Below are positions 14,016 to 14,658 of a stretch of DNA of 47,538 nucleotides, piece after piece. The position numbers and the translations under genes were made by a program. This DNA is from a virus. The stretch lies in IMG/VR virus record IMGVR_UViG_3300048919_000044, positions 1 through 47,538 of that record. The stretch is one strand, 5' to 3'. The notes beneath the pieces were generated by a model that had not been told where the DNA came from, made no database searches, and worked only from the letters and a program-made list of their open reading frames with translations. How positions within the stretch are numbered: the stretch's first letter is position 1; each line of letters opens with the position of its first letter.

Positions 14016-14031
14016 AGGTTCTCAAAAGGGC

Positions 14032-14061
14032 TTCACAGAATTAAGTAGGTTGTTCTATACT
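14032..14061 (+). promoter_or_regulatory. Promoter candidate TTCACA-N18-TATACT ahead of the structured non-coding region
   Basis: -35 at 14032..14037 and -10 at 14056..14061. Confidence 0.35.
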
Positions 14062-14381
14062 GGAATCTCTTTGATACCGATATCCAGTGATAGAGGGTTT
14101 GGGCATGAAGCGCGACTGATCAACCAACGCCAGCGACGCGGAGAACAGCTTCCGCCAGCCCGCATCACGCGGAAACCATCGTCTTTATCGAGAAGCCCCC
14201 GGCTTGCAGGCGTAGTAGGCAGAAAGCCGAAACCGGCATAAGTCATCACCGGGTGCTTCTCGATGCAGATGAATGATCTACGAGCGGCTGCTGCTGAACA
14301 GCGTAAGCGGTGACAGATGTTACTGGGATCAGCTCCAGGCATTCGCATCATAGAGTCAGATGAAAATCTGGCTCGCCGGTT

Positions 14382-14456
14382 CGCCATGTAGTTCAGTTGG
14401 TTAGAATATGGTCTCGAAAGAGGCTTGGGTCGGCGGTTCAAATCCGCCCATGGCGA
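14382..14456 (+). tRNA. tRNA-like gene with a non-canonical anticodon arm (no assignable anticodon)
   Basis: Acceptor CGCCATG/CATGGCG (extendable to 9 bp). D arm GTTC-AGTTGGTTA-GAAT. T arm GGCGG-TTCAAAT-CCGCC. The anticodon position holds a 6-bp helix capped by GAAA (14410..14425). No encoded CCA. Confidence 0.55.
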
Positions 14457-14537
14457 ATCACACACCAGCGACAATGCCAGCGCAGGACCTGAAATCCTGT
14501 TAGCTTCTGGTGGCAAGGATTGGGAGTTGCCCGGTCG

Positions 14538-14568
14538 AGCCCAGCTCTAAACCAGCTGGGCTTTTTTA
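14538..14568 (+). terminator. Intrinsic terminator
   Basis: AGCCCAGCT-CTAAACC-AGCTGGGCT followed by TTTTTTAT. Confidence 0.8.
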
Positions 14569-14658
14569 TGCCCGTCAATCCGCTAAGTGTCATATTGACA
14601 TGACGAACGAATCCATAGCGCATACAATCAACCAATACCAAATTCCGCAGGGTCGAGA

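Follow-up and report, generated by a model that had tools for sequence, protein, structure and literature searches.

Exchangeable structured RNA modules between a promoter and a terminator at the early/late junction of a lambdoid phage

What does a lambdoid phage carry at the site where lambda has Q, PR', the 6S RNA and tR', when that site holds no recognisable gene? The question is raised by a gap of about 640 bp (14016-14658) in IMG/VR virus record IMGVR_UViG_3300048919_000044, of which positions 1 to 47,538, the whole 47,538-nucleotide stretch analysed here, form the window. Both the window and the phage are denoted W, and L-numbers (such as L102) denote the related viral contigs or loci compared with it. 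W is a lambdoid-type temperate phage or prophage with about 57% G+C, whose protein similarities lead loosely toward phages of Pseudomonas, Alcaligenes or Acinetobacter, and its gap lies between an HNH endonuclease gene and the first late gene. An earlier note, made from the letters of the DNA, had read the gap as a coding desert encoding a highly structured RNA, either a late-gene regulatory leader or an independent RNA of about 500 nt. The gap is a real non-coding unit that extends from promoter to terminator, and it is a mosaic of RNA modules. One of these modules contains E1, which is a new RNA motif, supported by covariation and without a match in Rfam.

The features listed in the earlier note are all present, at the positions given there or a few bases away (Table 1). 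The plus strand of 14066-14570 folds better than its shuffles (z = -3.90; minus strand, z = -1.94). No open reading frame (ORF) of the gap has a Pfam match and none is kept in the relatives, where large blocks are replaced, so the claim that the gap holds no credible ORF stands, and coding homology, which the note had named as grounds for giving up its reading, was not found by Pfam. The region does not code for protein and looks transcribed, its promoter and terminator both being conserved and on the late strand; it is not one uniform RNA of about 500 nt, one of the two options of the earlier note, but rather a set of exchangeable modules.

Module E comprises E1 and a second hairpin, E2. A 17-mer from the E hairpin, used as a query, leads to about 25 further viral contigs, across which a 46-nt E core is 95-98% identical amid unrelated flanks. 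The E1 core is represented by 31 distinct sequence variants, and when the E1 structure is tested on 28 distinct sequences, 96.2% of the cells are paired. Both partners change in seven pairs, six of which belong to the closing stem P1; none of 500 shuffles reaches the observed value, and slid controls show 27-48% pairing. The hairpin that the earlier note had placed at 14483-14499 is the stem-loop P2 of this motif, the invariance of which is partly by construction, as the search pattern lay inside P2. G-U pairs are kept in both P1 and P2. Furthermore, the minimum-free-energy fold of 14457-14536 coincides with the covariation model and adds E2, which recurs in most members. The Rfam/Infernal scan and the covariation analysis that the earlier note had called for were thus both run: the scan matched the tRNA family and returned zero Rfam matches for E1, and a covariance model of E1, searched over 100 loci, recovers zero divergent copies. 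One-mismatch complementarity to the conserved strand CGACAAUGCC is seen in GGCAATGTCG at 15574-15583, which overlaps the ATG at 15578; such a match is within chance expectation.

The position of E1 is equally regular. E1 is always on the late-gene strand, just upstream of the first late gene (a holin or the small terminase), in at least five unrelated late-operon types; the sole exception is L277, where it follows the head genes and does not stand at an operon start. In a second group of phages, hereafter group 2, E1 begins approximately 8 nt past an extended -10 box (TGTTATCAT) that itself follows a terminator, and the transcript ends at a hairpin and a U-run. Such a layout, with its own -10 box and a hairpin followed by a U-run, marks it as a self-contained small-RNA gene. 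In the group of W, E1 directly follows a tRNA-like 3' end, which is element X in the relatives and a true cloverleaf in W. In a third group (L285, L300, L304), hairpin C2 of module C, the platform helix, X and E1 stand behind a different 5' domain of about 200 nt, with zero tRNA genes.

Table 1. Features of the gap in W, by position in the window
Feature	Positions	Strand	Composition
Module A, putative RNA-operon promoter	14007..14064	+	-35 TTCACA 14032-14037, N18, -10 TATACT 14056-14061
Leader hairpin, 'slot 1'	14067..14097	+	from alignment and fold; shared only by L104
Module C	14118..14190	+	hairpin C1 14138-14143/14150-14155, loop AACAGC; hairpin C2 14160-14163/14169-14172
Platform helix	14179..14272	+	inverted repeat, arms 14179-14202/14249-14272, 24 nt, 83% complementary, z = -6.05
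Element X	14262..14349	+	GAUGCAGAUG (14262-14271) can pair with CAUUCGCAUC (14340-14349)
GAAA-capped hairpin	14353..14374	+	nine pairs, z = -5.8; first part of the W insertion
tRNA-like element	14382..14456	+	acceptor, D and T arms and elbow nucleotides intact; 6-pair anticodon stem closed by GAAA
Module E	14457..14536	+	E1, then hairpin E2 GAUUGGG/CCCGGUC 14518-14536
E1	14463-14512	+	P1 14463-14468/14507-14512; conserved strand CGACAAUGCC 14469-14478; P2 14479-14487/14495-14505, loop CCUGAAA 14488-14494
Intrinsic terminator	14537..14570	+	ten-pair stem 14537-14563, 6 G-C, then T-run (scan)
Module G core, probable late promoter	14588..14628	+	palindrome TGTCATATTGACA 14588-14600, -35-like ATGACG 14600-14605, N17, -10 TACAAT 14623-14628

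The nature of the unit becomes apparent from its relatives, which were found through the 87-aa protein encoded just downstream and through a sequence pattern of the promoter block. Thirteen related contigs have one to four ordinary tRNA genes within the same frame, in the sets Thr-Asn-Gly, Thr-Asn-Gly-Trp, Thr-Asn-Trp, Leu with or without Gly, Met, and Gly alone. The tRNA genes of L102, L106, L109 and L110 begin 8-10 nt past the -10 box, so promoter A is placed exactly as the promoter of a tRNA operon. Judged as a phage tRNA operon, W has a promoter-terminator frame homologous to that of relatives with one to four canonical tRNAs, and ARAGORN finds no canonical tRNA in W itself. Module A, the position of the terminator and module G are constant among the relatives, and the middle is swapped in blocks, which are exchanged between flanks otherwise 90-100% identical. 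The close relatives L102 and L110 lack modules C, X and E but have kept promoter A, the terminator, the late genes and module G; the three missing modules are therefore not required in cis for late expression. L105 and L106 likewise retain this frame and the late genes without E1; being absent from L102, L105, L106 and L110, E1 is accessory. The reading of the gap as a late-gene regulatory leader is partly supported, by layout and position, but L102 and L110 keep their late genes without these modules, and a promoter-type block lies past the terminator.

At the 5' end of the frame, module A is 92-98% identical in the 13 relatives despite differing upstream genes. Both promoter-like sites of the earlier note, TTCACA-N18-TATACT at 14032-14061 and ATGACG-N17-TACAAT at 14600-14628, were found again by scan; two such sites against 1.0 expected is a count not above chance by itself, and both blocks are conserved in relatives with differing flanks. 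The -35 region of promoter A, CTCAAAAGGGCTT, is common to L111-L114 and L118 with the same N18 spacing, and module A is the positional homologue of a PR'-like promoter in phages that carry a phrog_3412 gene. A search of viral contigs with a module-A 16-mer gave 13 matches, 6 of them chance. Behind the promoter, the first slot is occupied in W by a leader hairpin, unremarkable alone (z = 0.1), and in relatives by tRNA-Thr, tRNA-Met, tRNA-Leu or tRNA-Gly. At the 3' end, the strong terminator that had been read at 14538-14568 was recovered with its stem and T-run; the terminator count is not above shuffled expectation by itself, and a terminator stands at the same position, with a different sequence, in every relative reaching that point.

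Module G extends overall over 14558-14658 and precedes the gene of the 87-aa protein (ATG 14659). L102, L106 and L110 conserve two of its blocks, GATTGNCATGACG and ATACAAT, but not the spacer of 16-17 nt between them, which varies; because two conserved blocks flank a variable spacer, the pattern is of promoter type. The palindrome of module G overlies the -35 region. Palindromes over the -35 of presumed late promoters occur as TGTCATATTGACA in W and as GTGATATCAC in group 2 (L303 and L293, downstream of the E RNA), followed by a TACAAT or TATCAT -10 box, and they may be binding sites of some late regulator. A 20-mer from module G has three matches in a genome collection, all chance and all in unrelated metagenome-assembled genomes. 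In addition, a DNA search with the whole gap against 50,697 phage records gave zero matches, and exact-protein look-ups gave only identical copies of the gap, hence zero variation. The genes on the 5' side, by Pfam and PHROGs, are NinB, a NinI-like phosphatase, NinG and the HNH endonuclease (13611-14015); those on the 3' side are the 87-aa membrane protein (14659-14922), two holins, a metallopeptidase, DUF2280 and the large terminase.

Between promoter and terminator, module C is nearly invariant in at least 10 relatives (folding z = -2.3), and its hairpin C1 has two compensatory pairs in L295 (GCGGAG/CUUCCGC versus GUGGCG/CUGCCAC). The helix that the earlier note had given as 14187-14202/14249-14264 is real but longer than claimed and forms the platform, in which CGUCUUUAUC and GAUGCAGAUGA, two conserved strands, enclose a variable insert that is closed by a stem (in W, 14191-14261). 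The identical site holds seven unrelated inserts of 58-126 nt in the relatives. A terminal stem closes all seven in the minimum-free-energy fold, an end-anchored count gives 11-18 terminal pairs in five of the seven, and two of the seven are tRNA-like with a T-arm. The insertion point is fixed within the conserved RNA, between ATC and GAT, in W (14179-14272), L104, L106, L109, L273, L274, L275, L285, L300 and L304; L104 has the platform twice. Palindromic UGAUCA or GAUC is found in several insert loops and in the X hairpin, and these loops could form kissing contacts.

Element X follows the platform. In the relatives its 3' strand, CAUCUGCAUC, is the perfect complement of GAUGCAGAUG. A hairpin, CUGG/CCAG in W (14323-14326/14335-14338, loop GAUCAGCU), abuts the 3' strand; the stem of this adjacent hairpin varies in sequence among relatives and the pairing is kept (GGGGC, AGGAG, CAGGU, GCCGG). 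The hairpin after the 5' strand also covaries (GCGCA, GCCCA, GCCAA). The 5' strand can alternatively pair within the platform helix. The topology of X is tRNA-like, diverged in W, with zero tRNA score.

Only W carries the next part, an insertion of about 106 nt (~14351-14456) with ATCA repeats on both sides (14347-14350 and 14457-14460). Both the GAAA hairpin and the tRNA-shaped domain of the earlier note exist as described, the former with its nine pairs; the insertion that they form is seen in no other contig, and no homologue of the GAAA hairpin was found in any related contig. The tRNA-like element matches the Rfam tRNA family (RF00005) at 47.1 bits, well above the gathering score, 29 (E = 4.8e-07, full model 1-71), and the bases U8, A14, G18G19, G53, T54-T55-C56, A58 and C61 are all readable. 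ARAGORN calls it 'tRNA-???' with a 2-base anticodon, corresponding to the 6-nt loop CGAAAG; Infernal aligns 8 nt in the anticodon loop against 7 expected, and the minimum-free-energy fold gives 6 pairs and GAAA. A 7-nt anticodon loop, U33 and a 3-nt anticodon, by which decoding competence was tested, are not found in it, and the element cannot decode. No CCA is encoded after A73, where the sequence continues AUC, and most real tRNAs in the relatives encode CCA.

A D-arm 20-mer of the tRNA-like element corresponds to tRNA-Asp(GTC) in 105 of the 117 viral matches typed by ARAGORN, and the nearest full-length viral tRNAs are tRNA-Ile(GAU), roughly 70-75% identical among the alignments listed. The exact anticodon arm has 16 matches in viral contigs, none with a tRNA or any homology. 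A descent from tRNA-Phe by deletion of U33 was considered and rejected, since the entire anticodon arm differs from the nearest tRNAs, not the loop only. The element is seen only in identical copies, that is, in one lineage. ARAGORN finds no transfer-messenger RNA (tRNA-like domain with a tag frame) in the window, nor is there an Rfam match to one; likewise, a YrlA/Y RNA-like structure (RF02553) has no match in W at E <= 10, and in the relatives reaches only 24-25 bits against a gathering score of 69, overlapping true tRNAs. Among the tRNAs of the relatives, tRNA-Thr(UGU) at L102:2445-2521 and tRNA-Met(CAU) at L109:2309-2385 are identical save for the 17-nt anticodon arm, and L275 has a third anticodon arm on the same tRNA body; judged by these alignments, anticodon arms appear to be exchanged as cassettes on a constant body. 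L271:574-653 (minus strand as stored, downstream of module E in operon orientation) is a long-arm tRNA-like element with the loop CUGUAAA, scoring 38 bits with the tRNA-Sec model against a gathering score of 47.

The most plausible explanation of these features, held with somewhat less than even confidence, is that the gap is a stand-alone operon of stable-RNA cargo, built on the scaffold of a tRNA operon and descended from a PR'-tR'-type late leader, with the late genes driven from module G. Promoter A would start a transcript near 14068, and the terminator would end it. The cargo of the sister phages would be one to four ordinary tRNAs, with or without structured RNAs; that of W, with the decoding tRNAs gone, would be module C, the long hairpin at the fixed site, X, the GAAA hairpin with the tRNA-like insertion, and E up to the terminator. 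The tRNA-like element and the helix-plus-hairpin end of X would be handles for RNase P and 3'-end processing, by which the primary transcript of about 500 nt would be cut into discrete stable RNAs. This processing would release an E RNA of about 110 nt, the same RNA that group 2 apparently makes directly from its own promoter, and E and its companions would act in trans on some partner. Meanwhile, the late genes would be transcribed from the separate promoter in module G. In evolutionary terms, the unit would be the descendant of a Q-PR'-tR'-type late leader minus the Q-like gene.

Several points weigh against this explanation. The spacer of promoter A is conserved beyond the needs of the -35 and -10 boxes, which would suit a bound regulator, and the -35 of promoter G is weak at the correct spacing, so that an activator may be needed. 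As the homologous site of phrog_3412 phages clearly operates by terminator read-through, read-through at 14537-14570 may still feed the late genes of W. Shuffled sequences fold as well as element X of W does (z = -1.0), and selection on the tRNA-like element is unsupported because only a single lineage is seen. A search of the window for the complement of CGACAAUGCC gave 10 matches against 4.9 expected, one of them the strand itself, and no convincing target. Finally, we infer both promoters and all processing steps from the DNA.

Comparable RNAs are known from phages and elsewhere. The tRNA cluster of phage T4 includes the co-transcribed stable RNAs called species 1 and 2, and its tRNA-linked stable RNAs are processed by RNase P; processing at tRNA-like 3' ends is also known from MALAT1/mascRNA and from the tRNA-miRNA units of murine gammaherpesvirus 68, where the tRNA-like parts serve as handles. 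As in T4, non-tRNA stable RNAs would lie within a phage tRNA operon, and as in all three systems the tRNA-like ends of W are plausibly signals for RNase P or 3' processing; in contrast, the sequences are unrelated to T4, and W is entirely without decoding tRNAs. GOLLD and ROOL are large ornate prophage RNAs, often beside tRNA genes, and both are Rfam families. They share with the gap a phage origin, adjacency to tRNAs, a length of several hundred nucleotides, and conserved junction strands with variable stem-closed peripheral domains. However, the modules here are swapped or missing among close relatives, and a single obligatory fold is doubtful for that reason. No match to GOLLD, ROOL, HEARO or another large-RNA family of Rfam was found in the window or in at least 30 related loci. 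The region belongs with the phage tRNA-linked structured RNAs and the lambda-type late leaders, and to no described RNA family besides the generic tRNA fold.

The second of these affinities leads to the strongest rival, which we consider rather unlikely: the gap is a cis-acting late leader, with A as the analogue of PR' and 14537-14570 as that of tR', in which polymerase starting from A is made resistant to termination. The agent could be the nascent E1/E2 RNA, module C or X, or an unrecognised Q-like or N-like protein binding the E1 hairpin or the conserved spacer of the promoter; in that case the leader would carry the tRNAs and the tRNA-like element as passengers. In lambda, Q, PR', qut, the 6S RNA and tR' form the late leader, of 194 nt against about 500 nt of structured RNA in W, and Stx phages carry the tRNA genes ileZ-argN-argO in the late leader between PR' and stx. 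Like these leaders, the gap of W lies downstream of the nin genes and upstream of the lysis genes, and its constitutive-looking promoter heads a short transcript that ends at a terminator; in the relatives, tRNA genes are likewise cargo of the leader. The full order of gene, promoter, leader and terminator is present in distant relatives of W, which carry at the place of the gap a phrog_3412 gene, a promoter with the -35 region and N18 spacing of W, a leader of about 70 nt and a terminator 20 nt before the late gene. Judged by this order, the layout must work by terminator read-through, as in lambda Q-PR'-tR', and it upholds the earlier comparison of the gap with the lambda PR'/qut/6S/tR' region. 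The phrog_3412 protein, encoded in L111-L119 at approximately 1850-2885 between NinG and the late genes (promoter and terminator at approximately 2862-3000), is by its position a candidate new Q-type antiterminator; it has no Pfam match, and a PDB sequence search with it was empty.

In W itself, no Q-like protein is found by Pfam or PHROGs among the genes flanking the gap and the tested ORFs of the early region, and tblastn of the phrog_3412 proteins against the window gives nothing, in agreement with the earlier note, which had seen no Q-like antiterminator. This absence of a detected Q-family or phrog_3412 protein sets W apart from lambda and counts in favour of the rival, as does the conserved spacer of promoter A. 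A model for an RNA acting in cis is given by the put RNAs of HK022, which are cis-acting RNA antiterminators, with putL starting at about +1 (PMC9378689). Similarly, E1 and E2 (14463-14536) fold into two stem-loops, about 75 nt in all, on the nascent RNA, near the promoter and before the terminator (14537), at the head of at least five late-operon types and, in group 2, from about +1, as putL does (PMC9378689); a dedicated protein is not evident for E1/E2 either. The differences are that put acts in early operons and E stands at a late operon, and that E1 is dispensable in sister phages. With filters off, the E1 model finds in HK022 20000-40751, which holds putL and putR, no better match than 9.9 bits (E = 0.7); if E works like put, it is thus not a relative of put.

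Other evidence also tells against a cis-acting leader. L102, L105, L106 and L110 lack E1, and L102 and L110 also lack C and X, yet all have the same frame and late genes, so an RNA-only mechanism through these modules cannot be general. A promoter-type pattern stands between the terminator and the late genes in the group of W, and a similar block with a palindrome is visible in group 2; this second block past the terminator also distinguishes W from lambda. A lambda-type pause element in the initially transcribed region was not found: the sequence just past the -10 box differs among the relatives (tRNA-Thr, tRNA-Leu or tRNA-Gly, a hairpin, or other sequence), contrary to the promoter-proximal pause site of a lambda-Q-type system. 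The E1 copy of L277, finally, does not stand at an operon start.

An array of decaying tRNAs at a recombination hot spot, whose structured pieces are harmless, non-functional remnants, is a doubtful alternative. Its appeal lies in the intact tRNAs that relatives have in the same frame, in isolated T-arm-like hairpins (GGTTCGATTCC) past the last tRNA of L102, and in repeated trailer motifs (ATCAACCA..CCAGCGAC) that flank the modules and coincide with rearrangement joints. The tRNA-like element of W fits as well, with a body of tRNA-Asp/Ile type, a non-decoding loop, no CCA and a single lineage; however, its changes are confined to a cleanly replaced anticodon arm, with the other arms and the tertiary-contact bases intact, a pattern that random decay would not give. 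Beyond this element, E1 is 95-98% identical amid unrelated flanks and its stem covaries, and the C1 and X hairpins show compensatory changes, which point to selection on RNA structure. Decay accounts fairly well for the tRNA-like element that only W has, but it leaves E1, C1 and X unexplained.

RNA motifs in the relatives offer a clue to a possible function of the cargo in trans. The abiF RNA (RF03085) neutralises the AbiF toxin in the manner of a type III toxin-antitoxin system (PMC12373285). The RNA operon of the relatives carries this motif, at L332:902-938 (minus strand), with 47.4 bits against a gathering score of 37, in one operon with module C. Sub-threshold abiF motifs of 25-28 bits, individually insignificant, occur at the same relative place downstream of E1 at L279:8506-8547, L310:9392-9433 (minus strand), L303:9547-9590 (minus strand), L285:2665-2714 and L109:2836-2869. 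In group 2, the motif doubles as the terminator; a plain terminator had been considered for this 3' hairpin and was replaced by an abiF-like motif with a U-run. Different from these relatives, W has no abiF motif at E <= 10, and none of the examined phage loci has an adjacent AbiF gene. Taken together, the motif matches suggest that the operon can carry RNA mimics of defence-system components. The int-alpA RNA motif (RF02996) is seen at or just below its gathering score at L332:2324-2390, L332:436-499 and L310:4525-4588 (all minus strand), and in L332 the two copies lie on either side of module C and of the abiF motif, all on one strand.

The union of tRNAs, antitoxin-like RNA and tRNA mimics in one fast-turnover operon suggests RNA-based counter-defence. 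In its full form, which we regard as improbable, the locus would be an RNA-only anti-defence island, a fast-turnover operon at the early/late junction that supplies RNA antidotes and decoys against host RNA-targeting immunity. Its hypothetical cargo would be the E1 RNA, spare tRNAs whose anticodon arms can be swapped, abiF motifs that resemble antitoxins, and tRNA mimics with extended stems. Under the same hypothesis, the tRNA-like element of W would be an uncleavable decoy for an anticodon nuclease or another tRNA-binding defence protein, presented through its intact acceptor/T-arm/elbow surface.

Much weaker is the proposal that the inverted repeats work at the level of DNA, for example as a cos/pac packaging site by the HNH and terminase genes or as binding sites of recombination proteins, which is very improbable. 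The gap does have an HNH endonuclease gene on one side and the lysis and terminase genes on the other, and the ends of many related contigs fall 2-3.5 kb past the HNH gene; against the proposal, the G-U pairs of the conserved helices are C-A mismatches on the opposite strand, the elements keep a constant orientation to the late genes with a promoter before and a terminator after them, folding is strand-asymmetric, and most phages with the RNA modules have no HNH gene. Two unrelated HNH endonuclease families are found at the 5' edge of the RNA locus, phrog_2118 in W (13611-14015) and phrog_953 at L107:2076-2651 and L285:1641-2243, and in L107 the HNH gene stands in place of the promoter, the tRNAs, module C and the platform. 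The HNH gene of W is common to at least 30 phages with unrelated flanks, and relatives sought through its protein have the HNH gene alone in common with W, with both flanks different. The HNH-related contigs L036, L041 and L042 end a few kb past the HNH gene, where the opposite strand carries host-type tRNA-Val or tRNA-Pro genes; such ends are probably prophage attachment sites with no connection to the gap. Hardly credible, lastly, is a small protein encoded in the gap: ORFs of such sizes exist (the largest 153 aa on the minus strand, 14055-14516, and the second 63 aa, 14050-14241), but they lack a Pfam match and cross the tRNA-like element and W-specific inserts, and the relatives swap whole blocks with length changes not divisible by three.

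Read as a stable-RNA cargo operon, the locus would show a lambda-type late leader that has lost its protein regulator and has become an exchangeable operon of RNA cargo. Two of its components are unusual in themselves, a cleanly 'anticodon-deleted' tRNA and a fixed site at which unrelated RNA domains, each closed by a stem, are inserted. E1 stands where early transcription gives way to late transcription, in a group of temperate phages of soil and rhizosphere that have no recognisable Q protein. Should the RNAs control read-through there, RNA-based antitermination would gain a second class; should they act in trans, the co-operonic tRNAs and abiF-like motifs would point to RNA-based counter-defence.

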